Shown here piece by piece: positions 1,776 through 24,706 of a stretch of DNA of 32,000 bases. Made by a program: the position numbers and the translations under genes. Below the pieces are notes generated by a model. The model saw only the letters and a program-made list of their open reading frames with translations. It was not told the origin of the DNA and did not search any database. The stretch spans positions 420,001 to 452,000 of the forward strand of contig NC_015931.1 of assembly GCF_000223395.1 (NCBI RefSeq), written 5' to 3'. This stretch comes from Pyrolobus fumarii 1A (GTDB taxonomy: Archaea > Thermoproteota > Thermoprotei_A > Sulfolobales > Pyrodictiaceae). The number at the start of each line of letters is the position of its first letter. Within the stretch, counting starts at the first letter, position 1.

Positions 1776-2060
1776 GTGACGTGTAAGGGGAAAGCTAATT
1801 GGTTTGGAGAGTATGGTGTGTTTGGAGGTGCGAGGTTGTCTAGGGTTATAAGGGTGAGGTACGAGGGGGGTGTGCTTAAGCCGTTGGAGCCGTTGGATTT
1901 GGAGGAGGGGGAGGAGGTTCAGGTCGTTATAGGGGTTAGGCGGGGCTCTGTTACTAAGAAGCTTTACGGGATTGCGAAGAGGCGTAGACCGGAGCTTACA
2001 AGGGACGAGTTTCTAGAGGTTATCGAGGAGGTAGAGAATGAGGATATTCGTGGATTCTAG
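1776..2060 (+). CDS. vapB: DUF104/AF2212-like VapB-type antitoxin
   Basis: It carries the hallmark VIRVRYEGGVLKPLEPLDLEEGEEVQVVI and overlaps the downstream PIN gene by 23 nt. The in-frame TTG at 1836, preceded by GGAGGTG, is a more likely start than the listed one. Confidence 0.75.
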   Translation: MTCKGKANWFGEYGVFGGARLSRVIRVRYEGGVLKPLEPLDLEEGEEVQVVIGVRRGSVTKKLYGIAKRRRPELTRDEFLEVIEEVENEDIRGF

Positions 2061-2472
2061 CATAATCTTAGCATTTCTTGCGGGTCAGGACGAAAGGGCT
2101 TATAGAATTGTTGAGGAGATAGAAAACCACGCAATCATCGGCTATATTAATGCTGTTGTAGTGGATGAAGTTGTCCACGGTTATCTAAGACTAGCAACTG
2201 GGCTTAGCTCAAAGAGGATAAGGCAATTGTTGGCGAAGAGAGACAGGAGGCTTGTCGAGTTGGTTAAAAGCGATGTGGAACCCTTACTGAAGCTGTTTAT
2301 AACCTTACCTATAGTGCTGGAGCCTCACGAGATAATCGAGGCTATGGAAGAGTATGGTCTCATGCCAGCGGACGCGGTAATCGCACTAACGTGCAAACAC
2401 TACGGCATATATACCATTGCAGCGCTCGACGACGATTTCAGGAGAATCCCGTGGCTCAAGGTAATCCCGTAA
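2038..2472 (+). CDS. vapC: PIN-domain toxin (VapC)
   Basis: The N-terminus reads MRIFVDSSIILAFL. A conserved acidic residue occurs at VVDEVVHGY, and the C-terminal ALDDDF matches the PIN T/xD..F motif. It is translationally coupled to the DUF104 gene. Confidence 0.8.
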   Translation: MRIFVDSSIILAFLAGQDERAYRIVEEIENHAIIGYINAVVVDEVVHGYLRLATGLSSKRIRQLLAKRDRRLVELVKSDVEPLLKLFITLPIVLEPHEIIEAMEEYGLMPADAVIALTCKHYGIYTIAALDDDFRRIPWLKVIP

Positions 2473-2619
2473 CCTAGGACACTAGGTTATCGCGTTTCCA
2501 ACGGTGTAGGCCTCTTATCAAGGATACATGCAATTCCTCTAGGAAGAGGGTTACACGAGGTTATGATTATGGCGGGGCCGCCGGGATTTGGACCCCGGAC
2601 CTCCGTCTCATCTACCGCA

Positions 2620-3125
2620 CCCTTGATGATTGCAGGTCTTCCCGGCCGTACCCGGTGCAGAGGTCCTCGGTGAGCGACTGGAGGTGCTTGATGCACCACT
2701 CGCCACCATCCAGGCCGATAATGCTGGCGATGTAATCCACGTTATGGCTACTCGTCTCCCCAGAGGAGTCCCCGGAGGAATCTTCTCCGCGAGACCCCGT
2801 ATATCCTAGCCTCTGGGCTCCGCCTCCCGGCGGGCATCGAGGCCTGCTCGGCTACAGCGCTGGCTTCAATACCCGCGCCCGGGACGATGGGTGTATGCTC
2901 GAGGCGCTCTCCTAGGGTCGTCGATGTACACGGTCACCATATCCCCGTTTGAGCCGTCGGAGGCTCGCGTGGTAGTCTTGTCTTCTTGTACGCCTCCGGC
3001 CCGTGAAGGAGCACCGGGAGGTGCGTGCCACGCTCGGCTAGGCTAGCCAGAGCCCTAAGCTCCTCCGCACGGCTGACGAGATGCGGCTGTGCCGCCAGCC
3101 CCCCTACCAACTCGGGCGCGAAACC
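2620..3125 (-). pseudogene. Decayed Arch_ATPase-like gene (multiple frameshifts, degenerate Walker A)
   Basis: My minus-strand translation of 3125-2934 gives ...PHLVSRAEELRALASLAERGTHLPVLLHGPEAYKKTRL... followed by a stop. Compare FVDRERGL...FPVVIYGPEGCGKTAFL in the intact ATPase at 12946. Further fragments, such as DYIASIIGLDGGEW, continue in other frames down to about 2620. Confidence 0.4.
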
Positions 3126-3158
3126 CTAGCATGCTGGTATTCGTCCGGGGATGGCTTT

Positions 3159-3581
3159 TCACGGGTCTATCCCTCGTTTGTGTGCCTCCTCGAGCAGCTT
3201 GGCTGCAAGCACTACGGGCTTGCTGTACTCCCTCTCCTCGACCAGCCTCCTCACGAGCCGCATATCGACAGTCGCGTACTCGTGTACGACGATGTTGCGG
3301 AAGCCTGCTATGCTCTTTAGGAGCCTCGCCTCGGCGTCGTTGATGACGCCTTCTCTCCTAAGCGCCTGGATGGCCTCACGCGTTGTGCTCGGGGTGTAGC
3401 CCAGCTCGGCTGCGAAACGCTTAGCCATGTCTATCAGCGCCTGGGCTTGCACCTGGAGGAGGTGGAGGGCGGCCAGCTCCTCGACCCACGTCCTCAGCCC
3501 CATCTCTCGGAGCCTGTCGAGCCTCTCCGCGGCCTCGACAACCGTGTTGTAGAGTCTCGCAAGGATGCCCGTGGCCCCCAC
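3159..3581 (-). CDS. hepT: DUF86/HepT HEPN-family toxin
   Basis: It carries the GFRNIVVHEY (R-x4-H HEPN) motif and lies downstream of and overlapping an MNT gene. The start is uncertain. An internal Met at about 3503 would reduce the 88-nt overlap. Confidence 0.75.
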   Translation of the reverse strand: MGATGILARLYNTVVEAAERLDRLREMGLRTWVEELAALHLLQVQAQALIDMAKRFAAELGYTPSTTREAIQALRREGVINDAEARLLKSIAGFRNIVVHEYATVDMRLVRRLVEEREYSKPVVLAAKLLEEAHKRGIDP

Positions 3582-4030
3582 CTGCGTAGAGCGGCCCGCA
3601 CCGCAGCCTCAATAACGTTGAGCTTGCGGCTGGATATCGCCTCGTCCTCGCAGACGCCGAGCCTCCTGAGCAGCTCGTCTATGAGCGCCCCCCGATCCAC
3701 CGTATAGAGGATCACATTGTGCCTCGCGGCCTCCTCTAGGAGGGGGCACGGAGCCTCATCGAGGCCGATCACGTCCACCTGGTCCGGGTCTATGCCCAGG
3801 GCGTCCGAGACCGTGAGCATAACCCTAAGCTTCTCCTCCATGTCGAGGTGTCTACCCCCGCAGGGCAGTACGAGCAGGTCTACGTCGCGGCCTACGCCCC
3901 TCCGCGCGAGAGACCCTACGAGCAGCACGTGGCAGACCCCAAGCTTACGCCACTCTAGCCTCCTCAACCTCTCCACGACATCGGCAGCATTGAGCAATAG
4001 CCTGCGCCGTGCCCGGAGAGCAAGAGCCAA
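3494..4030 (-). CDS. mntA: Minimal nucleotidyltransferase antitoxin (MntA-like)
   Basis: VLLVGSLARRGVGRDVDLLVL matches the GS-x(n)-DxD NTase signature. The C-terminal ~30 aa look non-native and overlap hepT, so a frameshift or a long overlap is possible. Confidence 0.7.
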   Translation of the reverse strand: MALALRARRRLLLNAADVVERLRRLEWRKLGVCHVLLVGSLARRGVGRDVDLLVLPCGGRHLDMEEKLRVMLTVSDALGIDPDQVDVIGLDEAPCPLLEEAARHNVILYTVDRGALIDELLRRLGVCEDEAISSRKLNVIEAAVRAALRRWGPRASLRDSTTRLSRPRRGSTGSERWG

Positions 4031-4145
4031 GCCTTAAACGCCTGGCGCGCCGATCAGCCAACGTCGCAGCTACAGCCCTTCGCCGTATGATCGTCGCTGG
4101 GCAGGAGCCGCGGCGAGATCCGCCCTCTACCGGCTGTGCCCAGGC

Positions 4146-4526
4146 TCACCCGCCCGGCACGCCGCTGCGCGGACACGGCAAGACGAGCAACAACAGTATC
4201 AGTGTGGCCTTTAGGGCCTCTACGGCCACGCCTATGAGGCTCTCCGTCGCCGCCCAGAGGGGTAGTGACGCGAGGATAGCCAGGTCGAGCGAGGCTGCCA
4301 CCACGCCCAGGAGCCGCCCGAGGCTGACGCCACGGTAGAGCAGGAAGCCCGCCACGATGTAAGACCAGCAGACGGCGAGGTACAGCGCCACAGTCTCACC
4401 GTACAACGCGTAGTGATCCGAGATGTGCAGCGGCCACCCTCCAAGAATTATGCCGAACAACCCGGTAACAATCATGAAGACCGCGGCTAGCCTCACAGGG
4501 TTATAGCTCGCCCCGTCTCTCTGCAA
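4146..4526 (-). CDS. Small polytopic membrane protein (about 4 TM helices), unknown function
   Basis: The sequence has hydrophobic segments AAVFMIVTGLFGIILGG, VALYLAVCWSYIVAGFLLY, LLGVVAASLDLAILASL and ATLILLLLVL. No family was recognised. Confidence 0.5.
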   Translation of the reverse strand: MQRDGASYNPVRLAAVFMIVTGLFGIILGGWPLHISDHYALYGETVALYLAVCWSYIVAGFLLYRGVSLGRLLGVVAASLDLAILASLPLWAATESLIGVAVEALKATLILLLLVLPCPRSGVPGG

Positions 4527-4886
4527 CGTAAACCCTACTACTACAGACGCGACGCACGAATATTAAAGGAGGAGTTTGGCCCACTTGCCCCTACCAGCGT
4601 GCATGGCGAGGCTTTGAGACCACCTCGAGGCCAGGAGCACCGGAGGGCATCACTATGCACGAGTAGCGGTAGGTGCGGCGTCCTCCGTCGAGCCCCTGGC
4701 GCTTGCCCCGGACCCGGGCCCGGCGGCGCAACGTCACTCGTCATCACGTGTGTCTCGGCGCGAGGCGGGCCGGATAACGACACCAGTGTTGCGAGCTATC
4801 GTCCCTCCGAGGCCGAGCCCCGATCCGCGCCGGGGAAGCGTTAAACTAGTTTCGCTTCTACCCTGAGTGCCCCCAGTGGTGCGGTT

Positions 4887-5327
4887 TTGCCGAGCATCGA
4901 GGAGTATAGGCTGCTGTTGCAGCGTAGCAGGATGTTCCTCGAGGAGGCTCGCGACGCGCTCGCCAAGCAGCGTTACGATCTGGCGGTTTTCCTCGCAGAG
5001 CAGGGACTACAGCTCTACCTCAGGGCTCAGCTTCTCCGCGTGCTGGGCGACTACCCTAGAACCCATAGCATCCGGCAGCTCCTCGCTATGCTCTCGAGGG
5101 CTCTCGGCGGCGAGGCCGAGAGGGAGATAGCCGAGTTCATGAGGCGCGAGAGGCCCCGCCTCTCCGAGCTCGAGGATGTGTATATAGCTTCTCGCTACAC
5201 TCTACGCGTCTACACGAGGGAGGACGCCGAGGACATACTATCCACCGTGGAGAGGGTGACAGCCCTTGTCGAGAAGCTACTCAGAGGTACTCCTCGAGAC
5301 GATGCTCGAGAGGAGACGCATGCTTAG
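4887..5327 (+). CDS. HEPN-domain protein (PF05168-type)
   Basis: YPRTHSIRQLL and IASRY motifs match the pattern PKTHSI...ARYP seen in the paralogue at 16392-16850. It is paired with the downstream NTase. Confidence 0.7.
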   Translation: MPSIEEYRLLLQRSRMFLEEARDALAKQRYDLAVFLAEQGLQLYLRAQLLRVLGDYPRTHSIRQLLAMLSRALGGEAEREIAEFMRRERPRLSELEDVYIASRYTLRVYTREDAEDILSTVERVTALVEKLLRGTPRDDAREETHA

Positions 5328-5625
5328 AAACTGGAAGCGGCTCGCGGAGGCAGTAGCCAGGGTCGTCAGGGAGGCCTACCCCGACGCCCGCGTCTACCTA
5401 ACCGGCAGCGTGGCTAGGGGAGAATGGACCGCAGCAAGCGACGTGGATATACTCGTAGCGCTCGACCATGAACCCTCTCCGCGAGAAGCGGCACAGGTGA
5501 TAGAATACATCTGGGAGAAGCTAGGCCTACCACCCAACCACCCCCTCGAGATACACGTGATCGGACCCCAAAGCCTCGAGAAGTACAGGAGACGCGCACC
5601 CCTCCAACCCCTAGACACCAAGTGA
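5266..5625 (+). CDS. Minimal nucleotidyltransferase (MNT, PF01909-type)
   Basis: It carries VYLTGSVARGEWTAASDVDILVAL. The likely true start is the ATG at 5320, which overlaps the HEPN stop (5325-5327) by 8 nt. Confidence 0.75.
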   Translation: MSRSYSEVLLETMLERRRMLRNWKRLAEAVARVVREAYPDARVYLTGSVARGEWTAASDVDILVALDHEPSPREAAQVIEYIWEKLGLPPNHPLEIHVIGPQSLEKYRRRAPLQPLDTK

Positions 5626-5697: not shown

Positions 5698-8600
5698 TCT
5701 TCAATCCGTTCTTGGTTGTTTCTTCAAAGCTCCATATTTTGTCCTCCAAGGCGAGATACTACCGCTTTCTTTCAATTCATTCCTGGTTGTCTCTCCACCC
5801 TTAGACCTACGCCAAATGCCTTACTTTCATACTAACCAACTTTCAATTCATTCTTTGTTGTTTCGTCCTCGCGGCGCTAGTGCTACTTGTGCCTGCTCTG
5901 GCGGCTAGCATCTTTCAATTCATTCTTTGTTGTTTCCGGCAAATGCAGCACGTTGTAGTGCCATACCTATCTGCATGGCCTTTCAATTCATTCTTTGTTG
6001 TTTCCTACAGCCAGTGGCGACGATGGACGATGTGAAGACGCTCCACCTTTCAATTCATTCTTTGTTGTTTCTCGTATACCTGGCGGAGTGGCTCCGTGCT
6101 CATTATCGTGTCTAGCTTTCAATTCATTCTTTGTTGTTTCCCGCTACGCCGCACTCGTTGACCTTCCGCCCCATCCCAAGAGTATCTTTCAATTCATTCT
6201 TTGTTGTTTCCCGTGCGGGCTGGGGAGGGGCGGGCGGAGACACCGAGGCACAGCCTTTCAATTCATTCTTTGTTGTTTCGAGCCGCAGCAGAGACTCCTC
6301 CTGGCCCGGCACCGGGTCTTTCAATTCATTCTTTGTTGTTTCCACTACGACGACTACCAGCCAACAAGCTTCGACAACGACCTTTCAATTCATTCTTTGT
6401 TGTTTCCTCACAGCACGTCACCCCACTACCATGACAACCACCCTGCCACTTTCAATTCATTCTTTGTTGTTTCACATAGTGCCGCTTGAGCGCATTGACG
6501 ACCCGGAGCGGTTCCTTTCAATTCATTCTTTGTTGTTTCCCGCCCTGCTGTACGCTATCAAACAAAATCCGAACATACTGCGCCTTTCAATTCATTCTTT
6601 GTTGTTTCGTGCGCATGCTCGTGCTAGTCACCCGCGGATTGCACTACTTCCTTTCAATTCATTCTTTGTTGTTTCTTTGGTATCGGTATTCTGCTTGGTG
6701 CAATTGCTAACGCCACCAACTTTCAATTCATTCTTTGTTGTTTCCTTATGCCCTCTTTTGCCCACTTGCGGAATAGCTCTATCCACTGACTTTCAATTCA
6801 TTCTTTGTTGTTTCTACGAGGCGCCCGACTGGCACCCGGAGGGAGTCACGGTAACCGTGCTTTCAATTCATTCTTTGTTGTTTCTGGGCAGCCGCCAAAG
6901 CCCGTCTATGCCAGCGGCGGCTACCTTTCAATTCATTCTTTGTTGTTTCTAGGCCTGCTAACACCCTGGCTCATACTAGGAGCAATGGCGACGGGCTACG
7001 TCTTTCAATTCATTCTTTGTTGTTTCCTGGCCCTGCAGGTCGATCACTGGGGTTATCGTGGTGTTCTTTCAATTCATTCTTTGTTGTTTCAAAAGATTGC
7101 TAAATGGCTCGAAGAGGACTTGTCTGACGAACTTTCAATTCATTCTTTGTTGTTTCGGGTTCATAGCATGGGCGGTTGGTATAGACGCCGAGATGGCCAG
7201 GCTTTCAATTCATTCTTTGTTGTTTCTAAGGGCGAGGAGCGCGAGGTTGACATGTGGGTCGTGCTTTCAATTCATTCTTTGTTGTTTCCTCGTCGCTACC
7301 CTCGATGAGGTACGGTGGTAGCATGAGCGCTGTCTTTCAATTCATTCTTTGTTGTTTCGCTCAGGTCCTCCGGTGCGTTCTCCAGCGCGTAGTTAACCTT
7401 TCAATTCATTCTTTGTTGTTTCGGGCGGACAGTTCTTCCACTACACGGTGTTGTCGTGGCTAACGCTTTCAATTCATTCTTTGTTGTTTCTATGCCTCGC
7501 GCCTTGGCCCAAGAACCTATATCGCGTACTCGTGCTTTCAATTCATTCTTTGTTGTTTCCCAGGATGGCCGCCGCGGCGGCAAAGATGTCCGCCTCTACC
7601 AACTTTCAATTCATTCTTTGTTGTTTCTCGGCTCGGCTTCCGTTCCTAGAGCGGCGGTATCGCCTAGAACTTTCAATTCATTCTTTGTTGTTTCTATGTA
7701 ACGCCGCGTTTCAGTGGCATGACGATGAGATGGGTGCTTTCAATTCATTCTTTGTTGTTTCACGAGAGCGGCGGCACGATATGCGAGTGTGAAGCCGACG
7801 ATGTCCTTTCAATTCATTCTTTGTTGTTTCACAGGGCCTCTCTACTCGACGCCAGGAAGCTGGTAAGGGTACTTTCAATTCATTCTTTGTTGTTTCCACG
7901 TTCTCCAGCCACTTTAGGAGCCACTCTTTCTTCTCCCCTTTCAATTCATTCTTTGTTGTTTCCCATGCGGCGGCTGCCGCTTCTCCACCAGCCGTCTTCA
8001 TACTTTCAATTCATTCTTTGTTGTTTCCTCGACCTTATCGCATGGCATGCAGTGAGCATGAGGAATGTCCTTTCAATTCATTCTTTGTTGTTTCCGCATA
8101 CCCTCTATACGCGGTGCGGGGATCCGGAAATGGTGGCTTTCAATTCATTCTTTGTTGTTTCCAGGCTTGGGTCGTGTCCACGCCCGAAGTCCGGTATCTT
8201 GCCAGGCTTTCAATTCATTCTTTGTTGTTTCACGTAGCTTAGGGTCGAACATGCCAACCGCTGGCTCTGTGTGCTTTCAATTCATTCTTTGTTGTTTCGA
8301 GGCTCTGGCAGATGGCCAAGGGCAGTGCTGGCAAGAAGCGGCTTTCAATTCATTCTTTGTTGTTTCCGTCCTTCGCGGGTTTACGCGTGGGGGTGCGTGG
8401 GATGGAGGCCGCCTTTCAATTCATTCTTTGTTGTTTCACACGCGTTTTTTCAACTTGCGCGACCTCGCACATCACGATCTGCCTTTCAATTCATTCTTTG
8501 TTGTTTCTTACGCGGTAGGCCCACGCGGAGGTGGTCGCGGGTGAAGCTTTCAATTCATTCTTTGTTGTTTCTATCGCGACAAACGTGCGCAGTGATGGAC

Positions 8601-10417
8601 GAATATACCTCCTTTCAATTCATTCTTTGTTGTTTCACAGTGGAGGTGAGCAAGCCATCCGACTGGTCTAGGAACAGGGCTACTTTCAATTCATTCTTTG
8701 TTGTTTCATGGGCTGTGTCGCGAGAACTGCTACCACGCGTGTATCATGGCATTGCTTTCAATTCATTCTTTGTTGTTTCCCGTGTGTGGCAAAAGTCGAA
8801 GGCAGAGGCGGCTACAAACCAACTTTCAATTCATTCTTTGTTGTTTCCTTGATTCTCAGCGCCACGAACGACGCTCTAGTATCGTCAATGACCTTTCAAT
8901 TCATTCTTTGTTGTTTCAGGCTGAACAGCTAGCACGGGGGAGGACACGAGCCATGAACGACTTTCAATTCATTCTTTGTTGTTTCGTGACGGGGTACCTA
9001 GCCACGGTTGTCACCTCCTAGATGTTCATACTTTCAATTCATTCTTTGTTGTTTCTCGCGGTAATAGTCCCCAGCGTCCGGGTCCACTGGTATCTCGACT
9101 TTCAATTCATTCTTTGTTGTTTCACTGAGGCCAGGGAGGAGCGGGAGCAGAAGCCCAGCGAGGCTTGCTTTCAATTCATTCTTTGTTGTTTCCGCGCGAC
9201 GTTATGGTCGTTCCCGCCGCGTCCGCCTCATCTTTCAATTCATTCTTTGTTGTTTCCTCGCTTCGAGAGGATAGTGATAAGGTGCGAGCCTATGACGCTT
9301 TCAATTCATTCTTTGTTGTTTCGTTAAACTAGAAATGAAAGCGCAAGGTTGTGAAAACGGGTGCTTTCAATTCATTCTTTGTTGTTTCCCCAGAAATATC
9401 TCGAACCGGAAATATCGAGCCCCGATAGGGTCACATTCCTTTCAATTCATTCTTTGTTGTTTCCTCACCCACCCGACCAGCGACCCATCACTAGCATTGT
9501 AGAACTCCCTTTCAATTCATTCTTTGTTGTTTCGTATTTGCACCACCAGCCGCAAGGCAGTATATGCCGCTTTTTCACTTTCAATTCATTCTTTGTTGTT
9601 TCCGCCTGGAGGTCTTCTGCGAGTGCAAGGGGTGTAGAGCCACTTTCAATTCATTCTTTGTTGTTTCATGATCTCAAATCGCGTCTCTTTACCGCCGCGA
9701 TCCTCTCCAGGCTTTCAATTCATTCTTTGTTGTTTCCATCAACGCTGTATCGTTCTTCCGCGATACGCCAAACCACTTGCTTTCAATTCATTCTTTGTTG
9801 TTTCGGATGTTACAACCCCAATAGTACCCAGTGTTGCATGTTCTCTTTCAATTCATTCTTTGTTGTTTCCGCGAGTGGTGGTTCGTGAAGGCGCGTCGCA
9901 TAACCGTGCTTTCAATTCATTCTTTGTTGTTTCCGCAGTTCCTGGCCACTGCCCGCCAGGTGCTAGAGAAGCTCGACTTTCAATTCATTCTTTGTTGTTT
10001 CTTTGGCTTCTCTTCATCCTCTAGACAATCACCGAGAATCAAGTCCTTTCAATTCATTCTTTGTTGTTTCATACATGTATGGGGTGGAGGTAGGTGATGC
10101 GACCAGTCATAGGCCCTTTCAATTCATTCTTTGTTGTTTCGCGCAAATGCTCGATACGTCCGCGGGAATATCCGCCTGTAGGCCTCCAGCTTTCAATTCA
10201 TTCTTTGTTGTTTCAAGTCCGGAATCTCGCTGGAGATGCCGAGGCGCGGTTTCGACTTTCAATTCATTCTTTGTTGTTTCACGGCCGCTGGCATATCCTC
10301 GCTCAGTAGCGTAGCTCCGATCAACTTTCAATTCATTCTTTGTTGTTTCCTGAAGGTTATGCTGGTGGTGTATGATGGTGGAATGCCAGTTACTTTCAAT
10401 TCATTCTTTGTTGTTTC
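5698..10417 (-). CRISPR. CRISPR array 1: 70 repeat units, 69 spacers
   Basis: There are 68 identical 25-nt repeats, CTTTCAATTCATTCTTTGTTGTTTC on the + strand, from 5840-5864 to 10393-10417. Two degenerate units lie at 5698-5722 and 5769-5793. Spacers are 37-52 nt and all look distinct by eye. Three observations indicate minus-strand transcription: the decayed units are at the left end, a conserved leader is at the right end, and the reverse complement ends in ATTGAAAG. Confidence 0.97.
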
Positions 10418-10690
10418 TGCATTCTTGCCATGTAGCTATAGGCCCTTCCCAGTATTTATTCTTGTCTGTCTTGTCTCTGTTTATGTGCATTTCGAGAGAT
10501 AGTGTGCGCCATGGCTGCCTGTGGGGCACGGTCCAGCGGTAGTACCGGGGTTATAAGCAGGGTAAAGTCTAAATACTGGATTGCAACAGTTTGGAGTATG
10601 TCCCGACCGCTGATAGTACCATGGGTAATGGTCCGCGGGTAGTACCGGGAGTTTAAAGGGTTACGCTAGAGGGTAGAAAAGGGTTGTGTC
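10418..10690 (-). promoter_or_regulatory. Leader of CRISPR array 1 with TATA-like box
   Basis: It is homologous, in inverted orientation, to 17302-17564. It holds a TGCATTCTTGCC flank, AATAAATA (reverse complement of 10453-10460) 36-43 nt from the first repeat, and two 17-bp dyad motifs at 10530-10546 and 10630-10646. Confidence 0.8.
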
Positions 10691-11016
10691 TAGGATGTGG
10701 GAGTTGCTGATTGTGTTTCCGTGTTTTGTTGTGTGTAGCTGTTGTGGTTGCGAGTTGTAGGTGATGTCTCAGTGTGCGCCTATGTCCGGGTTGTGTAGTG
10801 AGTTTGTTGTTTTACTGTCTCGTGTTGTGCTTGTCGCTTGTGTTGTAGCTTCTCTGTGCTGCTCTCTGGGCGCCCATTGTGCCTCTAGGAGAGGGTTCTT
10901 GCCATGAGACCGTGGGGTATGGTCCCGCTTTTGCCTGGGTTTGGCCTGGTTAGATCGTGGGTGTTGAGCCCGTGGGCCGTGGTGGCCGTGCCTGCAGGGT
11001 ACTACCGTGTCTTGCT

Positions 11017-11991
11017 CTACCTCGTCTCTATCCTGGTTGTCCCGAATCCTGCTGCTCGGCTGGCTCCCATGCCCATTACCGCTGCGTGGCTGAGGAGGTG
11101 CTCGGTTGTCTCGGTGTCTTCTGGCGTCGCGTCCTCGACGTAGAGCTTGGTGTAGCCTACTAGTGCGGGTAGGAGCCTGCCGCTGTGTATGTAGTAGCGG
11201 AGTCTTGTTGTTCTCCAGGTGGCTGGTGAGGGTGAGAGTGTCCTCTCGGCGGCCTCCACCATCTCGAGGGCTCTCCTGTGATCGCCCTCTGCTAGCTCCA
11301 GGGCGTTGACGTAGAGGAGGTATGAGGGTGCTGGTAGTAGCCTCTTCCAGCGGGAGCCGGGGCGCCAGGGGTTAACCGGCAGCGTGGGCGCCATGAGGGT
11401 TATCTTGACGCTGGTGGCGTCGCGTAGCCTGATTATGGGCTTGCCGCCCGGATCGTAGGTGGCCACCCTCCTGGCGTCCACGAGCTCGACGCGCAGCGTG
11501 TGCATCGAGAAGTCTATGTTGACGCCCTTATCCAGGCACGAGACCACCTCGTCTATCACATCCTCGAGGCCCGGGCCGAGCCCCACGTGGAAGGCGAGGG
11601 TGGAGCCGCTCTCGACCACTGGGTACTCGGTGCTCCTGCCGTCCCAGGAGCCGGGGTAGACCGCCTCGACCCTGCCGCCCTCGACGCGGAGGAGGGGTGA
11701 GAGCGAGAGGGGCTTGGGAAGAGTCAGCCCATCGTGGTTCAGTATGAGGGCGGCTGTGCGGGAACACGTGGCCACCAAGCCCCTCACGAGCTTACCCGTG
11801 TAGTCCGTGACGAGGAGGGGGCCGTAGCCGAGCCGGAGCCACAGCCTCACCCGCAGCTCCCAACGCTGGAATATCGTCAACCAGCCGCCGGCCCCTGGCT
11901 CCAACCACACGAGAGGCGCGTATAGACATAGAGGCGGCAAAGAACCCAGGCAAACAGTCACCAGTGCACCAGTCTCTACCGCGCTCCACAC
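11017..11991 (-). CDS. cas6: Cas6 endoribonuclease paralogue A
   Basis: The C-terminus has a glycine-rich loop, HLLSHAAVMGMGASRAAGFG (Cas6 GhGxxxxxGhG-type). It is homologous along its length to the ORF at 14107-15078, sharing LPVNPWRPGSRWKRLLP among other segments. It lies adjacent to leader 1. The first ~40 aa are doubtful, so the true start is probably internal. Confidence 0.75.
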   Translation of the reverse strand: MWSAVETGALVTVCLGSLPPLCLYAPLVWLEPGAGGWLTIFQRWELRVRLWLRLGYGPLLVTDYTGKLVRGLVATCSRTAALILNHDGLTLPKPLSLSPLLRVEGGRVEAVYPGSWDGRSTEYPVVESGSTLAFHVGLGPGLEDVIDEVVSCLDKGVNIDFSMHTLRVELVDARRVATYDPGGKPIIRLRDATSVKITLMAPTLPVNPWRPGSRWKRLLPAPSYLLYVNALELAEGDHRRALEMVEAAERTLSPSPATWRTTRLRYYIHSGRLLPALVGYTKLYVEDATPEDTETTEHLLSHAAVMGMGASRAAGFGTTRIETR

Positions 11992-12275: not shown

Positions 12276-12827
12276 TCAATGCTTGCGGCTGTGCTCTATC
12301 CTGGCCCGGATCTCCTCGACCAGCTTCTCTGCCTCGGCTAGTACGGCCTCTACGTCTCTGCGTGTACACCAGCCCTCGTAGAAGCAGGTGTGGAGGCTGT
12401 TGGCCTCGCGGAACACCCTCCCTATCCACTCTCCCAGCTCGCGAGCGACAACATCCTTGTACTCCCATAGCTCGCCGTGGCTAGCCAGCCTCCTCCCATC
12501 CCTCCAGGCCGCATACGCCTTCACGGCTAGCGCCACAGCGCCCCAAATCTTCTCAGCAGCCTGCCTATGGTCGCCCCTACCCAGCTCTCCCCTCGCCTGC
12601 CCAAGGAGCAGGCTAGCGGCCTCGATGTAGTCCAGAGCCCTCTCCCTCGGATCCGCCTCCCGCTCCACAAGCTCGATGATATACTCCTCGACCGTCACAC
12701 CTAGACGCTCAGCCTCCCTCTTAACCCTCTCACCAACCCTAGGGGGGAGCACGATAACCAGACCAGCCAAGACCCTACCATCCCCAGTCTTAGGGGTAGG
12801 CAGTACGCCCCACAAAACGTGTAACAC
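12276..12827 (-). CDS. PaREP1-family protein with N-terminal RHH-like segment
   Basis: AAEKIWGAVALAVKAYAAWRDGRRLASHGELWEY...ANSLHTCFYEGW matches the remembered PaREP1 pattern (EKxWGA..VK..A...SH..LW...A..LH..FYEG). The N-terminal VKREAERLGVTVEEYIIELV looks CopG/RHH-like. Confidence 0.7.
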   Translation of the reverse strand: MLHVLWGVLPTPKTGDGRVLAGLVIVLPPRVGERVKREAERLGVTVEEYIIELVEREADPRERALDYIEAASLLLGQARGELGRGDHRQAAEKIWGAVALAVKAYAAWRDGRRLASHGELWEYKDVVARELGEWIGRVFREANSLHTCFYEGWCTRRDVEAVLAEAEKLVEEIRARIEHSRKH

Positions 12828-12945
12828 ATGAACCTGAGGCGCTGCAACACCCCGGCTTGCCGAGCCGGTTCCCTGGGTCCGGGGGCGGTCCAGGGCTTTC
12901 GAATAGTGTCACTGTAGACTGTACCGCGACTCCCTTGCCCGGCTG

Positions 12946-14052
12946 GTGGTGCTGGCCAGCGGCGCCATGCGCTTTAATTTTATGCAGCGACGCTACTGTC
13001 TTCGTTGCTGGGAGTGTCTTGGCGTGGCTTCGTGGCGTAGGGTTAGGCTGGTCTTCGCCCCTGGTCTCACAGTAGAGTTTGTTGACCGCGAGCGTGGTTT
13101 GAGGCAGGTTGAGGGTCTCGCCGGGAGGGGTACGAGGTTCCCCGTGGTGATCTATGGGCCGGAGGGTTGCGGGAAGACCGCGTTTCTCCGCCAGGTTTTC
13201 GAGGTTTTGAAGAGCCTCGGGTATAGCGTCGTCTACGTGAATCCGCTCGGGAGGGAGGCTGGGGAGAGGCTGCTGACGACGGAGGATGTGAGGAGTCTCG
13301 TGGGCGCGTTGGCCGAGTTTGCTCTTGGCGGTGGGGCTGCGAGGCTCGTAGACGCGGCTTTGGGAGTCGCGTCTAGGCTGTTCGGGCGTAGCAGGAGGAT
13401 AGCGTTCATAGCGGATGACGTATTCCAGGCTATTGGTGTCGAGGAGGCCGAGTTGTACGTCAAGAGGCTGTTGAACCTCATCGAGTATCCTCCGGGCGAG
13501 TATGAGAGGATTGTTGTCCTGGTGGCGTCTAGCGAGGGCGTCACGAGGGGGAGGATCTCTAGGCACAACTGGGCGAAGCTCATGATGATGTGGAACATGC
13601 CGAGGAGCGCCCTGGAGGAGCTCTACGAGCAGATACCGGGCGCTAAGCCGGGCTTCGACGAGGTGTGGGCCTGGACCGGCGGAAACCCGAGGTACCTGAG
13701 CCGACTCTACGAGGCCGGGTGGCGGGTGGACCGCGTGATAGAGGAGATCGTCGCTGAGAGGAGGGTGTTGCGGGCGCTCGCCCGGAGGTGGAGAAGAGAG
13801 CTGGAGGAGACTGTCAACGACCCGGACTACCTCATGGAGGAGTATGAGAGGGTGGAGGGGCTTGCACGGAAACTGATAGAACTCAACATGGTGGTGGAGG
13901 TCGTCGAGTACCGCAGCGAGGATCTCTGGATAGACACGCCTCCGCCCGAGAGGGACCCGGAGCTGGGCATAGGAAGGTTCTACGCATGGGCGACCCCGCT
14001 TCACAGGGAGGCTGTCAGGAGGATACTCTCCGAGTATTCTCTGAGCGGGTGA
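12946..14052 (+). CDS. Archaeal AAA+ ATPase (Arch_ATPase/PF01637-like)
   Basis: FVDRERGLRQVEGL is followed by a Walker A motif, VVIYGPEGCGKTAFL. Walker B reads IAFIADDVFQ, and TGGNPRYL is also present. The start is uncertain: a TTTAATTTTA box at 12971-12980 suggests a downstream start such as the GTG at 13024. Confidence 0.75.
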   Translation: MVLASGAMRFNFMQRRYCLRCWECLGVASWRRVRLVFAPGLTVEFVDRERGLRQVEGLAGRGTRFPVVIYGPEGCGKTAFLRQVFEVLKSLGYSVVYVNPLGREAGERLLTTEDVRSLVGALAEFALGGGAARLVDAALGVASRLFGRSRRIAFIADDVFQAIGVEEAELYVKRLLNLIEYPPGEYERIVVLVASSEGVTRGRISRHNWAKLMMMWNMPRSALEELYEQIPGAKPGFDEVWAWTGGNPRYLSRLYEAGWRVDRVIEEIVAERRVLRALARRWRRELEETVNDPDYLMEEYERVEGLARKLIELNMVVEVVEYRSEDLWIDTPPPERDPELGIGRFYAWATPLHREAVRRILSEYSLSG

Positions 14053-14106: not shown

Positions 14107-15078
14107 CTAGCCCTCGAGCCTATCGGTGGACGGCATGGCCTCTATGCTTACCGCGCCGAAGCCAGCCGCCCTCCCGGAACCCACCCCCATGACCACAGCG
14201 TGGCTGAGGAGGTGCTCCACGGTCTCTACCTCCCCCTTGCCCACCCCCTCTGTCTCGACGTGGAGCTTCACATAGCCTATCATCGCTGGGAGCCTGCTCC
14301 CGTCGTACAGGTACCAGTATACCCTCGCGGTGTCGAGGGCCGCGTGGCTGGGGGATAGTATCCTCTCGGCGGCGATCAGCGCCCTCTCGACGAGAGCCGT
14401 GTCGGGGTCGAACATGTCGTGGGCGTTCACGGCCAGCAGGTATGAGGGTGTGGGCAGCAGCCTCTTCCAGCGGGAGCCGGGGCGCCAGGGGTTAACCGGC
14501 AGCGTGGGCGACCTAAACACGATCTTGACCGCCTCTACGCCGTCGAGCCTGACTATAGGGTCGCTGTGCGTGTCGTACTCCGCTATCATCCGGGCCTCTA
14601 CGGGCTCCACGGTGATAGCCGCTCCGCAGAACCTCACCGAGACGCCCCGCGAGAGGCACTCGAGCAAACGTGGCATCTCGTTAATCAAGTCGCCACCAGC
14701 ACCAACCTCGAAGAAGACCACCTCGCCGTCTTCGAGCACCGGGGCCCGTATCTTGTCGCGTTGCGGGCCGCCCGGGTACACCGCCTCGACCCTACCGGGG
14801 CCGGTCACGCGGAACAAGGGCGTCACGGAGAGCCTCTTGGCCACGCTCTTCTCCGAGGAGGAGAGTATGGACGCGAACCTCTCCGAGCACACCGCTAGGA
14901 GGCTCTTCACGAGCTTCCCGGTGTAGTTGCACACGCGTAGAGAGCCGAAGCCATACACCCTAACCGTGAAGGACCATCGCTCGAACCTAGCCACTCTATA
15001 GCCCCCGTGCACAGAGGAGCAGGGATTCAAGAAGGGTTTTCGAGCAGGATTTGCGGGAGACGCGCCCTGGTGCAACAC
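14107..15078 (-). CDS. cas6: Cas6 endoribonuclease paralogue B
   Basis: It has the glycine loop HLLSHAVVMGVGSGRAAGFG and the N-terminal pattern WSFTVRVYGFGSLRVCNYTGKLVKSLL. It is a paralogue of 11017-11991 and lies 29 nt downstream of an MNT gene on the same strand. Confidence 0.75.
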   Translation of the reverse strand: MLHQGASPANPARKPFLNPCSSVHGGYRVARFERWSFTVRVYGFGSLRVCNYTGKLVKSLLAVCSERFASILSSSEKSVAKRLSVTPLFRVTGPGRVEAVYPGGPQRDKIRAPVLEDGEVVFFEVGAGGDLINEMPRLLECLSRGVSVRFCGAAITVEPVEARMIAEYDTHSDPIVRLDGVEAVKIVFRSPTLPVNPWRPGSRWKRLLPTPSYLLAVNAHDMFDPDTALVERALIAAERILSPSHAALDTARVYWYLYDGSRLPAMIGYVKLHVETEGVGKGEVETVEHLLSHAVVMGVGSGRAAGFGAVSIEAMPSTDRLEG

Positions 15079-15107: not shown

Positions 15108-15452
15108 CTACCCGTCAACCCCAGGGTCTACCCGCACATGCCTATACCTGGCTAGCATCTCTCTACACTCCTCATCACTATGCACGTGCAGCTCTACGGG
15201 GTAGTCTATCGGGAGGCCGTGCTTATCGAAAGCCTCCTTTAGCACCGCGTGCTTCACCAGCCTCGGGTCGGCGTCCTCCTCGAGGCACAGGAGCACATCC
15301 ACATCGCTGAGGACTGTTAGCCTGCCCTCCGCGGCGCCACCGATGACATACACTCTGGCCCTCAACCCGAGGCTCTCGACAGCCCTGGCTATGGCCTCGG
15401 CAGCCTCCCTCCACCTCCTCAGGTACTCTACGTGGTGCCTAGCCCAGAGCAC
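15108..15452 (-). CDS. Minimal nucleotidyltransferase (MNT)
   Basis: It carries VYVIGGAAEGRLTVLSDVDVLLCL and overlaps the upstream HEPN gene by 14 nt. Confidence 0.75.
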   Translation of the reverse strand: MLWARHHVEYLRRWREAAEAIARAVESLGLRARVYVIGGAAEGRLTVLSDVDVLLCLEEDADPRLVKHAVLKEAFDKHGLPIDYPVELHVHSDEECREMLARYRHVRVDPGVDG

Positions 15453-15939
15453 GCCTCTCGACCTCCTCTAGCAGCTCGAATAGTCTCTTCGCGGCCAGTA
15501 TCACATCCGCGACCTCCCGAGCCCCCAGCGTAAAGACCCCATAACGGGCCGATGTATAGGCGTCCTCAGCGTCTATAAGCTGGTCGCGGTACTCCCTCGT
15601 GTACCTCCTGACCTCACCTGCGAGGCTCCGGCACCCCAGCTCCTCCAGCACACGCGCCAGTATCCCGAGCAGCTCGCGGAGACCGTGTATCCTCGGCATT
15701 TCGCCGGAGAGGCGGAGCAGAGACGCTTTTACGCGCAGCTGCATAGCCTGCTCGGCGCAGAAAGCGGCGATGTCATACCGCCCTCTCTCCAGCAGCTCGC
15801 GAGCCAGGGATAGGAAGAAGCGTGCACGATCCTTCAACAGCTCTACACGCTCACCACTACCCATCACGCACCCCGAAGAACCGAGAAACACGAGAACATT
15901 ATACACCATGACGCCGCCATACAGCTGGTACACCGACAA
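15439..15939 (-). CDS. HEPN-domain protein
   Basis: It carries MPRIHGLRELL and YTSARYG motifs. The likely start is the internal Met at about 15864 (MGSGERVELL...). Confidence 0.7.
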   Translation of the reverse strand: MSVYQLYGGVMVYNVLVFLGSSGCVMGSGERVELLKDRARFFLSLARELLERGRYDIAAFCAEQAMQLRVKASLLRLSGEMPRIHGLRELLGILARVLEELGCRSLAGEVRRYTREYRDQLIDAEDAYTSARYGVFTLGAREVADVILAAKRLFELLEEVERRALG

Positions 15940-16102
15940 GACACTATGGCCGCGCGCATAACCGCGGGGGAGGACGCCGCTGCTCGAGACGAGCGTCCCG
16001 CTAGACCCGTCAAACCGAGACGAGGTTGGATAGCCGAGAGGAAGAGCACGGTGACCCCCAAGACGCGGCGAGGCGCTACACGCGGCCTCGTAGAACTATG
16101 GG

Positions 16103-16546
16103 CTACACTATGCGCATCCAGTACCTAGACGCGTCTCTCAACACCACGCTCTTCTCGAGCCTGTCGCGAAGCTCCTCGGGCGTGAGGGGTATGAGGGTCG
16201 CGTCCCTCTCCCACCTCCAGAGCCGGTATAGCATAGAGAGCCTCTCCTCCATAGTGTAGCGCCCCCAGTCCCTAGATACTATCACGAGGTCGACATCGCT
16301 CTCGGCGGTGTAGTCCCCCCGCGCTATACTGCCGAAGAGGTAGACCGCCTCTACCCTCACGCCGCGCCCCCTGAGCTCTACAGTCAGCTCCTCAACCCAC
16401 CTGCGTATCTCCTCGAGAAGCCTCCTCCACTGCTCTCTCCGCCGCCTCAACAACTCTCCTAGCGGCAGCCACTGCTCTCTCCGCGGTTCTCCCGCTGATA
16501 ACTTCATCCGGGAGGCCCTCCACGACATCCGGGTACCTCGCGACAT
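16103..16546 (-). CDS. Minimal nucleotidyltransferase (MNT)
   Basis: It carries VYLFGSIARGDYTAESDVDLVIV. The listed start overlaps the HEPN gene by 155 nt, and an in-frame TTG near 16450 after GGAG is a more plausible start. Confidence 0.7.
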   Translation of the reverse strand: MSRGTRMSWRASRMKLSAGEPRREQWLPLGELLRRRREQWRRLLEEIRRWVEELTVELRGRGVRVEAVYLFGSIARGDYTAESDVDLVIVSRDWGRYTMEERLSMLYRLWRWERDATLIPLTPEELRDRLEKSVVLRDASRYWMRIV

Positions 16547-16850
16547 AGTAGTATTGTGTCAGCTCGTATGCGTCCTCCAGTTCCTCCCTGCCTAGCCCCA
16601 GGTTGGAGCCTAGCTCCTCGAAAAGCCTCCGGATGCTATGCGTCTTCGGGAAATAGCCTTTAAGAGCGAGCAAGACAGCTTTAAGCGCCTTCTCGGCAGC
16701 CTGCTGCGCCCAGAACACGGCGGCCGCACGATCACCCTCCCTAAGGCTACGCTCGGCACGCTCAAGATCCCTCCTTGCGAGCCTCAACCACCATAAAACC
16801 TGCTCCCTAACCACCCTCCACACCCTTACAGCCGCGCCACTACACAGCAT
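16392..16850 (-). CDS. HEPN-domain protein
   Basis: It carries YFPKTHSIRRLFEEL and YYVARYPD, the classical PF05168-type HEPN motifs. Confidence 0.75.
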   Translation of the reverse strand: MLCSGAAVRVWRVVREQVLWWLRLARRDLERAERSLREGDRAAAVFWAQQAAEKALKAVLLALKGYFPKTHSIRRLFEELGSNLGLGREELEDAYELTQYYYVARYPDVVEGLPDEVISGRTAERAVAAARRVVEAAERAVEEASRGDTQVG

Positions 16851-16974: not shown

Positions 16975-17241
16975 TTAGGACCTCGACTCACACCATACCA
17001 ACGGATCACCGCCCAAGCTCCCTTTGACGCCAGGCATCCCACCAACAATACTCACCTCGAAGAACAGAACCTCACCATATCCAGCCATATCCGCAGCACC
17101 CTCCCGCGTAACAAGCCGCCCCTTACACAGCCTCAACCCTGCCAGGCCAACCACACGGAACAACAGGAGGGTAACAGACAGCCTCTTGGCCACACCCCTC
17201 TGCGACAGGGGAAGGGACACCAACAAACCTCTCCAAAACAT
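16975..17241 (-). pseudogene. cas6: Truncated, decayed cas6 fragment abutting leader 2
   Basis: GVAKRLSVTLLLFRVVG...GEVLFFEVSIVGG aligns with SVAKRLSVTPLFRVTG...GEVVFFEVGAGG of Cas6 B (about aa 85-140). The N-terminal ~55 aa and the C-terminal half, including the glycine loop, are absent. Confidence 0.6.
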
Positions 17242-17289
17242 ATAACCAATAAATTTCCCACAGACTCATCACAAGCTTAAAAACAAATA

Positions 17290-17564
17290 CACTAGCAATC
17301 CTTATCTACCCTCTACAACAATATTTTTAACCCCTGGTACTACCGGTGGACCGTCGCTCACGGTCCCATGGGTGGATGTGAGGTACTCCCGACCGCTGTA
17401 ATCCGGTATTTAACCCTTGCCCGGCTTATAAACTCGGTACTACCCGCGGACCATACCCCACGGCCATCTGTGCCCGGCACGACTACACTCAAATCACAGA
17501 AACAAAGACAACAGAGAAAAGAATAAATAGAAGAGAGACCCTATAACCACACGGCAAGAATGCA
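17290..17564 (+). promoter_or_regulatory. Leader of CRISPR array 2 with TATA-like box
   Basis: It is the inverted homologue of 10418-10690. AATAAATA lies at 17522-17529, 36-43 nt upstream of the first repeat. Dyad motifs lie at 17336-17352 and 17436-17452, and GGCAAGAATGCA directly abuts the first repeat. Confidence 0.8.
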
Positions 17565-18822
17565 GAAACAACCAAGAATGAATTGAAAGCTTCAGCGCGT
17601 AGTAGTGGCGCTCGAGACTCCTTGGCGAGTAGGAAACAACCAAGAATGAATTGAAAGTTCATCACGGTCGGTATGAGTGGGAGCGGCGGGTTTGGGAAAC
17701 AACCAAGAATGAATTGAAAGTCCAGGTGCTCGATGGCCCATAGTGGCGCCTCTACAAGCGCGAATGGAAACAACCAAGAATGAATTGAAAGAAGGATGCG
17801 TTCGAGAACTGATATCGCGTTGTCAATTTCCCTCCGGGGAAACAACCAAGAATGAATTGAAAGGAGAGGAAGGCTGCCCCGGACCTCGTCCGCTCTATCG
17901 TCGATGGAAACAACCAAGAATGAATTGAAAGGCTATCATCGCCTCCAGTTTGGCAATGATTTGGTCAGCCTGTGAAACAACCAAGAATGAATTGAAAGAA
18001 GCTTCTTGTACGTCTCAACGTCGGCCTCAACGCGTATTACTTTCGAAACAACCAAGAATGAATTGAAAGGCGACGTACGCGATGTGTGGCGACTCGTTGA
18101 ACTGTGTGTTCTGCCGAAACAACCAAGAATGAATTGAAAGTACAAACTCGTAGTTCTCTCCGCCACGGTTTATAACGATGAGAAACAACCAAGAATGAAT
18201 TGAAAGTGCCTCGAACCTCGCGGCGGCCCTGTTATGGTTCGTGGCGGTGTGAAACAACCAAGAATGAATTGAAAGAACTATGCTCTGTAGTAGCCTGGGA
18301 AGCTCCGCGCTCATCCCGCGAAACAACCAAGAATGAATTGAAAGTAGTACACGCAATACGGCATTGCACACCCACCACGCGTACACTCTAGAAACAACCA
18401 AGAATGAATTGAAAGTAGTGTGGCACGACAGTGGCTATGACTTAGTGCCGGGCTATAGCCAGAAACAACCAAGAATGAATTGAAAGGTGACACTATACAA
18501 CATCACGGACGTCGTGAAGAGGAGCGTGAAACAACCAAGAATGAATTGAAAGTTAACCCGGCCGCGCGCCGCGACGATCTCGAGATCGCGCCGGCGGAAA
18601 CAACCAAGAATGAATTGAAAGGTGATAAAGTACGGCGCGCAATACGGCACCGGGTTCTGGATTGAAACAACCAAGAATGAATTGAAAGTGATCTCCTGTG
18701 GGTTCGGTTTCTCCACCCTGATCTCGACATCAGAAACAACCAAGAATGAATTGAAAGGTAGCTGAGACCATAGCGTAGCCGGTAGAGTTGTGCCACGGGA
18801 AACAACCAAGAATGAATTGAAG
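17565..18822 (+). CRISPR. CRISPR array 2: 19 repeat units, 18 spacers
   Basis: The repeat is GAAACAACCAAGAATGAATTGAAAG, first at 17565-17589. The terminal unit at 18799-18822 lacks one A (...ATTGAAG). Spacers are 38-47 nt. The leader is on the left, and the ATTGAAAG 3' end is typical of Cas6-processed archaeal repeats. Confidence 0.97.
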
Positions 18823-18894
18823 ATGTTTAGGGTGGCTGGCTTGGTTGGTCTGGTTGCGTCCGCGTGTTTTGCCGGGTGGGTTTCTGCGTTGCGG

Positions 18895-24265: not shown

Positions 24266-24706
24266 CTAGAGCTCCTCGGGCGTCGTGATGTGCTCCTCTG
24301 GGAGCTTGTGTCTACGGATGAACTCCACTAGGCTGTCGTCTATGGTTAGTAGTGTCAGGTTGTTCGCCAGGGCTATCGAGTATAGGAGGTTGTCCACCAT
24401 ATCCCGGTGTCCCATCATGTACATGCGTATGGCTTGCTCCACAGCCTCGGCCGTCATGGGGGCGTGCGACATGCTATCCCGGATAGCCTGGACGCCCTCA
24501 ACAACCCTCTGGATGTCCCCCGCCGGTCTACCCCTCAAGACCTTCACTATCTTCCAGAGGGCTTCCAGCAGGCTAATCTCACTATAGTACAGCTCGTGGC
24601 CGGCCAGCCTCGGAAGCGCCCTCATGACCCTCTGTGAGGTTTCGAAGCCCAGCACCGGTAGGAGGAAAGAAGTGTCAAGTAGTAGACGCAAGCCTCTCCT
24701 GCTCAC
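24266..24706 (-). CDS. vapC: PIN-domain toxin (VapC)
   Basis: The N-terminus reads LRLLLDTSFLLPVLG and the C-terminus reads LLTIDDSLVEF. It overlaps the upstream AbrB-type gene. Confidence 0.8.
   Translation of the reverse strand: MSRRGLRLLLDTSFLLPVLGFETSQRVMRALPRLAGHELYYSEISLLEALWKIVKVLRGRPAGDIQRVVEGVQAIRDSMSHAPMTAEAVEQAIRMYMMGHRDMVDNLLYSIALANNLTLLTIDDSLVEFIRRHKLPEEHITTPEEL

Follow-up and report, generated by a model that had tools for sequence, protein, structure and literature searches.

Both CRISPR leaders in the window of Pyrolobus fumarii 1A studied here (the whole 32,000-nt stretch, positions 420,001 to 452,000 of contig NC_015931.1) contain two copies of a 28-nt element at a spacing of 100 bp. 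The element exists, is duplicated, and sits under sequence constraint. Each copy follows an A/T-rich TATA-like box and a short C-rich linker, and box, linker, and 28-nt element together make up a module of approximately 44 nt. With moderate confidence, the modules are interpreted as a pair of operator-like protein-binding sites that would control leader transcription and/or spacer integration; we infer protein binding and functional output from the sequence pattern. P. fumarii is among the most thermophilic organisms known. The two arrays of the window are divergent, facing away from each other, and their repeats (ends GAAACAAC...ATTGAAAG) differ at 1 of 25 positions. The arrays and leaders are located as follows:

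5769..10417, CRISPR RNA (crRNA) sense on the minus strand: CRISPR array 1, 69 repeats GAAACAACAAAGAATGAATTGAAAG
10418 to ~11016, read on the minus strand: leader 1
10418..10687, minus strand: conserved core of leader 1, 270 nt, in ungapped alignment with the core of leader 2
~16975 to 17564, plus strand: leader 2
17295..17564, plus strand: conserved core of leader 2, 270 nt
17565..18823, plus strand: CRISPR array 2, 19 repeats GAAACAACCAAGAATGAATTGAAAG

The 17-nt core of the element, GGTACTACCNNNGGACC (GGTACTACC-N3-GGACC), has exactly four exact matches in the window, two per leader:

10530-10546, minus strand: core copy in leader 1
10630-10646, minus strand: core copy in leader 1
17336-17352, plus strand: core copy in leader 2
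17436-17452, plus strand: core copy in leader 2

All four copies are in crRNA-sense orientation and lie on the promoter side of repeat 1, as is expected of a leader cis-motif. Allowing up to two mismatches adds no further match (0.24 expected), and none of 100 shuffles reaches four. At three mismatches, a single additional match falls into a leader (10604-10620), and the other four extra matches are at chance level. Repeat finding that was independent of the motif returned a direct repeat of 28 to 35 nt with a spacing of 100 in each leader. When each 300-nt leader was searched without bias for its two best-matching 28-nt windows, the same pair came out (22/28), a value reached in 0/200 and 1/200 dinucleotide shuffles. 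An earlier note on this DNA had reported the four copies with their coordinates and strands; all of them were recovered, and every coordinate and string of the note is correct, including the identity of 10910-10925 with the reverse complement of 17448-17463. The 17-bp motif that it described is a real core, but the conserved unit is larger and comprises 28 nt, or 44 nt if the A/T box is included. The consensus GGTACTACC-NNN-GGACCRT-NNCYC-AYRG fits all four copies, which are found in both leaders at −229 to −202 (distal) and −129 to −102 (proximal) from the first repeat:

10619..10646, minus strand: leader 1 distal unit (−229 to −202), GGTACTACC CGC GGACCAT TACCC ATGG
10519..10546, minus strand: leader 1 proximal unit (−129 to −102), GGTACTACC GCT GGACCGT GCCCC ACAG
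17336..17363, plus strand: leader 2 distal unit, GGTACTACC GGT GGACCGT CGCTC ACGG
17436..17463, plus strand: leader 2 proximal unit, GGTACTACC CGC GGACCAT ACCCC ACGG

The unit features two boxes with internal symmetry. Box A, GGTA-C-TACC (generalized as GGTA-S-TACC), is a 4-1-4 palindrome, and its form GGTASTACC occurs five times in the window, always within leaders. Box B is a 7-5-7 dyad, GGACCRT-N5-AYGGTCC, which is perfect in the distal copy of leader 2 (GGACCGT..ACGGTCC) and carries a progressively decayed right arm in the other copies. These two symmetries are clearer than the imperfect inverted repeat of GGTAC and GGACC that had been proposed before, which is the weakest one available. 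Neither box A nor box B is present in the additional P. fumarii flanks of approximately 8 kb on each side (loci L041-L044).

The leader cores align without a gap over the last 270 nt before the array; farther upstream, the in-register identity is that of the background, and at the edge of the core at −270 the number of identical positions per 30 nt climbs from 4-12 to 16-25. Three landmarks are shared by both leaders in addition to the units, the first and third of which had been placed correctly by the earlier note:

Abutting the first repeat, both leaders: junction flank TGCATTCTTGCC
10565-10579 and 17400-17416 (about −166 to −152): AATCCRGTATTTA, perfectly conserved, containing a third TATA-like run
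10668-10678 and 17305-17315 (−260 to −250): TCTACCCTCTA, perfectly conserved, marking the upstream edge of the core

Outside the units, the identity between the leaders is 68% (146/214). The core positions of the units, by comparison, are identical at 28 of 28 positions between the leaders, and the N3 spacers vary (CGC, GCT, GGT, CGC), so that between these two related leaders, conservation is higher in the units than around them. By our own arithmetic, 0.68^28 amounts to ~2e-5, a value to be read with the core positions having been picked after seeing the data. Comparing distal with proximal copies, within or across leaders, 26 to 32 of 44 positions (59-73%) are identical inside the 44-nt module, against 13 to 17 of 56 (23-30%) in the remainder of each 100-nt interval, which equals the random level (0.265). 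Furthermore, the distal–proximal identity across leaders (32/44) is about that of orthologous positions (31/44). Similarity that is confined to the module, together with cross-leader identity equal to that of orthologous positions, argues that the four sites are held to one consensus rather than being similar by simple descent.

The identical distances in both leaders (113 and 213 nt from the array, with the copies 100 bp apart) had been presented as a feature that the leaders share. The positions are true, but because the leaders are ungapped paralogues free of indels, equal spacing and equal distances count as one inherited fact and not as a replication. The cores are approximately 70% identical yet indel-free across 270 nt, and at such divergence this suggests that the spacing of the whole core, beyond that between the two units, is under constraint. 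The paralogy also opens the possibility of a history without function: a tandem duplication of approximately 100 bp in an ancestral leader, followed by duplication of leader and array, would leave the copies behind as mere leftover similarity. The leaders are clear paralogues, ungapped over 270 nt and attached to nearly identical repeats, and relics upstream in leader 1, which include a copy of the leader terminus, indicate that leader DNA has been rearranged. Neutral decay, however, cannot yield 28/28 core identity against the 68% background and the variable N3, nor 59-73% identity in the module beside random-level identity in the rest of the 100-bp unit, and zero indels over 270 nt suggest a constrained spacing. 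Hence, this explanation is considered improbable.

A/T runs of at least 6 nt occur only four times in the 270-nt core. All of them are conserved in position (−240, −158, −139, and −43), and two adjoin the units, each unit lying 3 to 5 nt downstream of a run that reads TTTAAA or AATATTTTTAA at the distal and TTATAA(A) at the proximal site:

10652..10657, minus strand: TTTAAA, TATA-like, 5 nt upstream of the leader 1 distal unit
10551..10556, minus strand: TTATAA, TATA-like, 4 nt upstream of the leader 1 proximal unit
10453..10460, minus strand: AATAAATA at −43 to −36, after a purine-rich stretch
17320..17330, plus strand: A/T box AATATTTTTAA, 5 nt upstream of the leader 2 distal unit
17426..17432, plus strand: TTATAAA, TATA-like, 3 nt upstream of the leader 2 proximal unit
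17522..17529, plus strand: AATAAATA at −43 to −36

The AATAAATA run, which the earlier note had located at 36-43 nt and which is present in both leaders, probably serves as the TATA box for pre-crRNA transcription. In the GC-rich DNA around the leaders, A/T runs lie 25 to 45 nt ahead of start codons and resemble a local promoter or TATA signature. The usual distance from the center of an archaeal TATA box to the start site is approximately 26 nt; added to the hexamers at −240 and −139, it places the predicted start, from geometry only, on the conserved C-R step that follows GGACC (about −212 and −112). The modules might thus be tandem upstream core promoters, with the A/T hexamer as the TATA box and the GC-rich element as the promoter-proximal or initiator region and the 5′ end of a leader transcript, giving rise to long 5′-extended pre-crRNAs or to separate leader RNAs. 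Placement of both units 3 to 5 nt downstream of a conserved TATA-like hexamer, the coincidence of the predicted start with the C-R step, and the rarity of A/T hexamers in GC-rich DNA, where they mark gene promoters, are consistent with such an arrangement. The sequence upstream of the hexamers is pyrimidine-rich, unlike a B recognition element (BRE): three of the four boxes at the units have a C-rich upstream flank (CCC, CCCTGC, CCCGGC), that of the leader 2 distal box is A/T-rich, and only the −43 box is preceded by purines (ACAAG/AAAAG). In addition, a conserved GC-rich stretch of 28 nt with internal dyads far exceeds the needs of an archaeal initiator, and no terminator or stable RNA structure follows. 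Tandem promoters are therefore an unlikely, though not negligible, explanation. They would be compatible with operator-like sites, as an operator overlapping the start site is classic archaeal repressor geometry; given the missing purine-rich BRE and the long conserved GC-rich segment, the element would be such an operator even if the hexamers served as promoters.

The dyads could also act at the level of nucleic-acid structure, as a hairpin or cruciform in single-stranded DNA or leader RNA (e.g., GGACCGU-CGCUC-ACGGUCC) that is recognized by Cas1 or another protein and that can be likened to the stem-loop at the leader-proximal end in Sulfolobus islandicus. In the leader 2 distal unit, box B pairs perfectly into a 7-bp stem that closes a 5-nt loop; in leader 1, the distal unit still has 6 of the 7 pairs, with an A-T exchanged for G-C; and S. 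islandicus Cas1 prefers stem-loop DNA in vitro (PMC9456107). The two proximal copies and the relic, however, have a degraded right arm. Folding a 156-nt stretch of RNA that includes both units gives z = −0.64 and −1.36, which is no better than shuffles, with predicted folds that differ between the leaders, and Rfam yields no family match at gathering score across the window; covariation is not assessable with only four to five copies. As for coding, all six frames contain stops, and the mismatches lack codon periodicity (31/30/20). Because folding, Rfam, and frame tests are all negative, RNA structure, an Rfam family, and a small open reading frame (ORF) were rejected as explanations of the conservation. 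Recognition of a folded form is deemed very improbable.

The preferred interpretation of the modules as operator-like sites draws on the type I-A system of S. islandicus. Its regulator Csa3a binds a leader motif at −130 to −103, with a second motif at −79 to −53, and activates crRNA transcription; both motifs are related to an imperfect palindrome of approximately 24 bp defined at the csa1 promoter, the distal one is a clear Csa3a-binding site, and an electrophoretic mobility shift assay of the full leader hints at cooperative binding of both (PMC5587795). When the Csa3a leader motif is mutated, the array next to it acquires fewer spacers (PMC9456107). As in S. islandicus, two related motifs of approximately 25 to 28 bp with imperfect dyads precede the crRNA TATA box in the leaders of P. 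fumarii, another crenarchaeon, with the proximal unit at −129 to −102 compared with the Csa3a site at −130 to −103 and a second copy beside it. Both genomes contain a pair of arrays with matching leaders (identical in S. islandicus), both I-A and III-B systems, and genes of cyclic oligoadenylate (cOA) signaling; P. fumarii is listed with subtypes I-A and III-B in a survey (PMC12195208). The systems differ in the spacing of the copies, which is 100 bp in P. fumarii versus approximately 51 bp in S. islandicus. Unlike the Csa3a sites, each P. fumarii copy adjoins its own TATA-like box, and no copy is found at a cas promoter in the DNA examined.

Sulfolobales leaders are conserved and carry motifs over approximately 230 bp from repeat 1 (PMC4390879). 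In Sulfolobus solfataricus, type I-A integration depends on ATP, on host factors yet to be identified, and on a leader of at least 400 bp in which each internal 100-bp block is required (PMC5815122). The P. fumarii leaders resemble these type I-A leaders in being long (~600 bp), in having a conserved core in the first 230 to 270 bp with discrete motifs, and in the fading of conservation upstream (PMC4390879, PMC5815122). P. fumarii (Pyrodictiaceae) is, however, placed here in a different order, and its motif sequences are unrelated. We know of no description of an internal module duplication at exactly 100 bp for Sulfolobales or S. solfataricus leaders. To our knowledge, Csa3a of Sulfolobus is so far the only leader-binding regulator tied to a defined leader motif. 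As leader cis-elements, the modules can further be compared with the site of the integration host factor (IHF) and the upstream anchoring sequence of types I-E and I-F and with the leader motifs of types I-D and II-A, which are read by a host or accessory factor and direct Cas1-Cas2 to the leader–repeat junction (PMC5224486, PMC6607411, PMC5382924). Those systems are bacterial and their elements lie within approximately 60 bp of the repeat, unlike the P. fumarii elements 100 to 230 bp upstream, and archaea lack IHF. The kind of element is known; its sequence and the TATA-coupled, duplicated layout at 100 bp are specific to this lineage.

A mechanism along these lines would involve a sequence-specific DNA-binding protein that occupies both modules of each leader. 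Judging by the dyads GGTA-S-TACC and GGACCRT-N5-AYGGTCC, it may bind as a dimer or as two dimers. Once bound, the protein may modulate leader transcription, either by activating the main promoter at −43 or by repressing TATA-like boxes from which RNA would begin within the element. Another possible role is in marking or shaping the leader for spacer integration by Cas1-Cas2, as Csa3a does at the S. islandicus leader. The dimeric leader-binding factor postulated in the earlier note agrees with this as far as a selectively maintained protein-binding site is concerned; the dimeric state was derived from partial dyads alone.

Several observations weigh against operator-like sites of this kind. The dyad symmetry is imperfect, with a poorly conserved right arm of box B, and the spacing of 100 bp corresponds to approximately 9.5 helical turns, which is not obviously in phase. 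The sole phylogenetic footprint consists of two paralogous leaders of one genome. The closest arrays available by repeat, with 23/25 identity, from metagenome-assembled genomes (MAGs) of Desulfurococcaceae, Desulfurococcales, and Sulfolobales, have unrelated leaders in which the motif is absent. The motif is found at no other promoter of the window, even at three mismatches, where the extra matches equal chance. By inspection, the units have no similarity to the Csa3a consensus TTCNTAACTAAANANGGNNNGAAA (PMC4333418), so that membership in the family of Csa3a sites fails at the level of sequence. Finally, neither the window nor the retrieved flank of approximately 8 kb on each side encodes a csa3-like protein with a CARF and a winged helix-turn-helix (wHTH) domain, and no binder was found there; one nearby CARF protein resembles SiRe_0806, which binds cyclic tetra-adenylate (cA4), and a helix-turn-helix domain is not evident in it.

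This CARF protein (22528-24252, minus strand; annotated with 550 aa; L043 3246-4898) has only five homologues in a database of 5.8 billion proteins. Its AlphaFold2 model (pLDDT 69) matches best the cA4-binding SiRe_0806 of S. islandicus (9jxx/9jxw, E about 5e-6), and no Pfam domain was found in the C-terminal ~400 residues. The protein is probably an uncharacterized cOA-responsive effector. It was rejected as the obvious candidate for the binder, given its SiRe_0806-like fold and no evident wHTH. The adaptation module (cas1) is not part of the window or of the ~8-kb flanks, and a homologue search with the Cas1 of a related MAG did not return the P. fumarii gene.

A more specific proposal sees the modules, kept at a rigid 100-bp spacing within the indel-free core, as places where a leader factor restricted to Pyrodictiaceae and other than Csa3—an archaeal counterpart of IHF—would dock and build a phased nucleoprotein scaffold coupling crRNA transcription to site-specific spacer insertion. 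We regard this as a long shot; if true, this protein would be the as yet unidentified host factor that type I-A integration needs alongside a long leader. The host factors and leader signals behind the specificity of archaeal type I-A integration are still open (PMC5815122), and the duplicated element of 28 to 44 bp provides a ready bait for DNA-affinity pull-down as well as precise targets for in vitro mutagenesis. A new factor would extend leader recognition beyond the Sulfolobales, and a Csa3 homologue would mean that the geometry at −130 has been kept across orders despite complete turnover of the site sequence.

Searches for further copies covered genomes, metagenomes, and viruses. The extended motif had no match in a scan with one genome per species; P. 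fumarii was not returned even by its own repeat, so this zero is silent on genome-wide scatter. Motif and exact repeat had no match each in metagenome scans, and six single motif matches in viral contigs were judged to be at chance level. Cas6 has only seven homologues (42-60% identity), and their contigs (L001-L003, L045) contain neither the motif nor a homologous leader. A look-alike at the end of L045, GGTACCGCCGGTGGCCG, agrees at 10 of 14 core positions and was judged a chance match in GC-rich, probably coding DNA. In L001, a metagenomic contig with a 60% identical Cas6, a remnant array of 2.5 repeats GAAATAACAATCAATGAGTTGAAAC directly follows cas6 (10921-11092); its orientation is opposite to the P. 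fumarii arrangement, and the sequence on either side of it bears no relation to the leaders of P. fumarii.

The MAG arrays with the repeat GTATCAACAAAGAATGAATTGAAAG (L005, L009, L011, L017, L021, L031) share a different conserved leader core of approximately 140 nt. This leader of Desulfurococcaceae and Desulfurococcales MAGs features the dyads ATGAATC-N3-GATTCAT and CCACGCGTGG, the latter twice with the second copy decayed in some, upstream of a strong TATA box, TTATTTAWAAA. With the leader of a Sulfolobales MAG (L026), they can be aligned only near the CACGCGTGG element. The MAG leaders follow an analogous two-site design with complete sequence turnover.

Leader 1 carries additional pieces of the element:

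10604..10620, minus strand: degenerate extra copy GGTACTATCAGCGGTCG with 3 mismatches, 9 nt downstream of the distal 17-nt core and overlapping the last 2 nt of the 28-nt unit
10896..10925, minus strand: relic, box B copy GGACCATACCCCACGG (10910-10925) joined to an 11-nt leader-terminus copy CATGGCAAGAA (10896-10906)
10998..11006: isolated box A palindrome, GGTACTACC on the plus strand and GGTAGTACC in crRNA sense, at −589 to −581, outside the core, center base changed

The degenerate copy at 10604..10620 has no conserved counterpart in leader 2. The leader-terminus copy TTCTTGCCATG at 10896-10906 matches 10422-10432. The pieces at 10910-10925 and 10998-11006 occur outside the conserved core and in leader 1 only. 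They resemble remnants left by past rearrangement of the leader more than functional sites; the strings listed before as decayed extra copies are all present and are better read in this way. The string GGTACTACCGTG at 10998-11009 does lie just before the cas6 stop (11017). Its supposedly flipped orientation, in turn, only reflects that box A is palindromic, and in crRNA orientation it reads GGTAGTACC.

The genes between the arrays comprise two cas6, a PaREP1 gene, a probable P-loop gene, and two HEPN/MNT pairs:

11017..11991, minus strand: cas6 (Pyrfu_0458), annotated product 287 aa, ORF 100% identical to Pyrfu_0458, reading into leader 1
14107..15078, minus strand: cas6 paralogue 2 (Pyrfu_0461)

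Between the two cas6 genes, a 404-aa ORF (12790-14004, minus strand) is rich in Pro, Arg, and His, has no homologues, and looks like a shadow ORF. The overlapping ORF 12946-14052 (plus strand) has weak P-loop/RecD-like matches and is more likely to be a real gene than the minus-strand 404-aa ORF. The start of the window (41-958, plus strand) lies inside cmr3, and a complete type III-B Cmr module with Cas10/Cmr2 of 1081 aa and RAMP proteins is located directly left of the window, beyond the trailer end of array 1 (L041 1-9112). This follows from Logan contigs (loci L041-L044) that extend the P. fumarii DNA by approximately 8 kb on each side, with the Cmr module on the left and genes of a HerA-like protein and an ATPase on the right. 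The right part of the window encodes, in addition to the CARF protein, a Crn1-like ring nuclease: the product of 31003-31488 (minus strand) is a Crn1-like CRISPR ring nuclease or a Csx14-like CARF protein (NCBIfam NF040581, E = 1e-12, below the curated cutoff). Together, the Cmr module and this Crn1-like or Csx14-like protein point to cOA signaling at the locus. Pairs of the toxin–antitoxin type are unusually dense around both arrays and comprise four HEPN/MNT pairs, HepT/MNT, PIN, and PIN-DUF3368/UPF0175, distributed over four segments:

2038-5625: toxin–antitoxin-type pairs
15108-16850: toxin–antitoxin-type pairs
24266-24706: toxin–antitoxin-type pairs
26992-28219: toxin–antitoxin-type pairs

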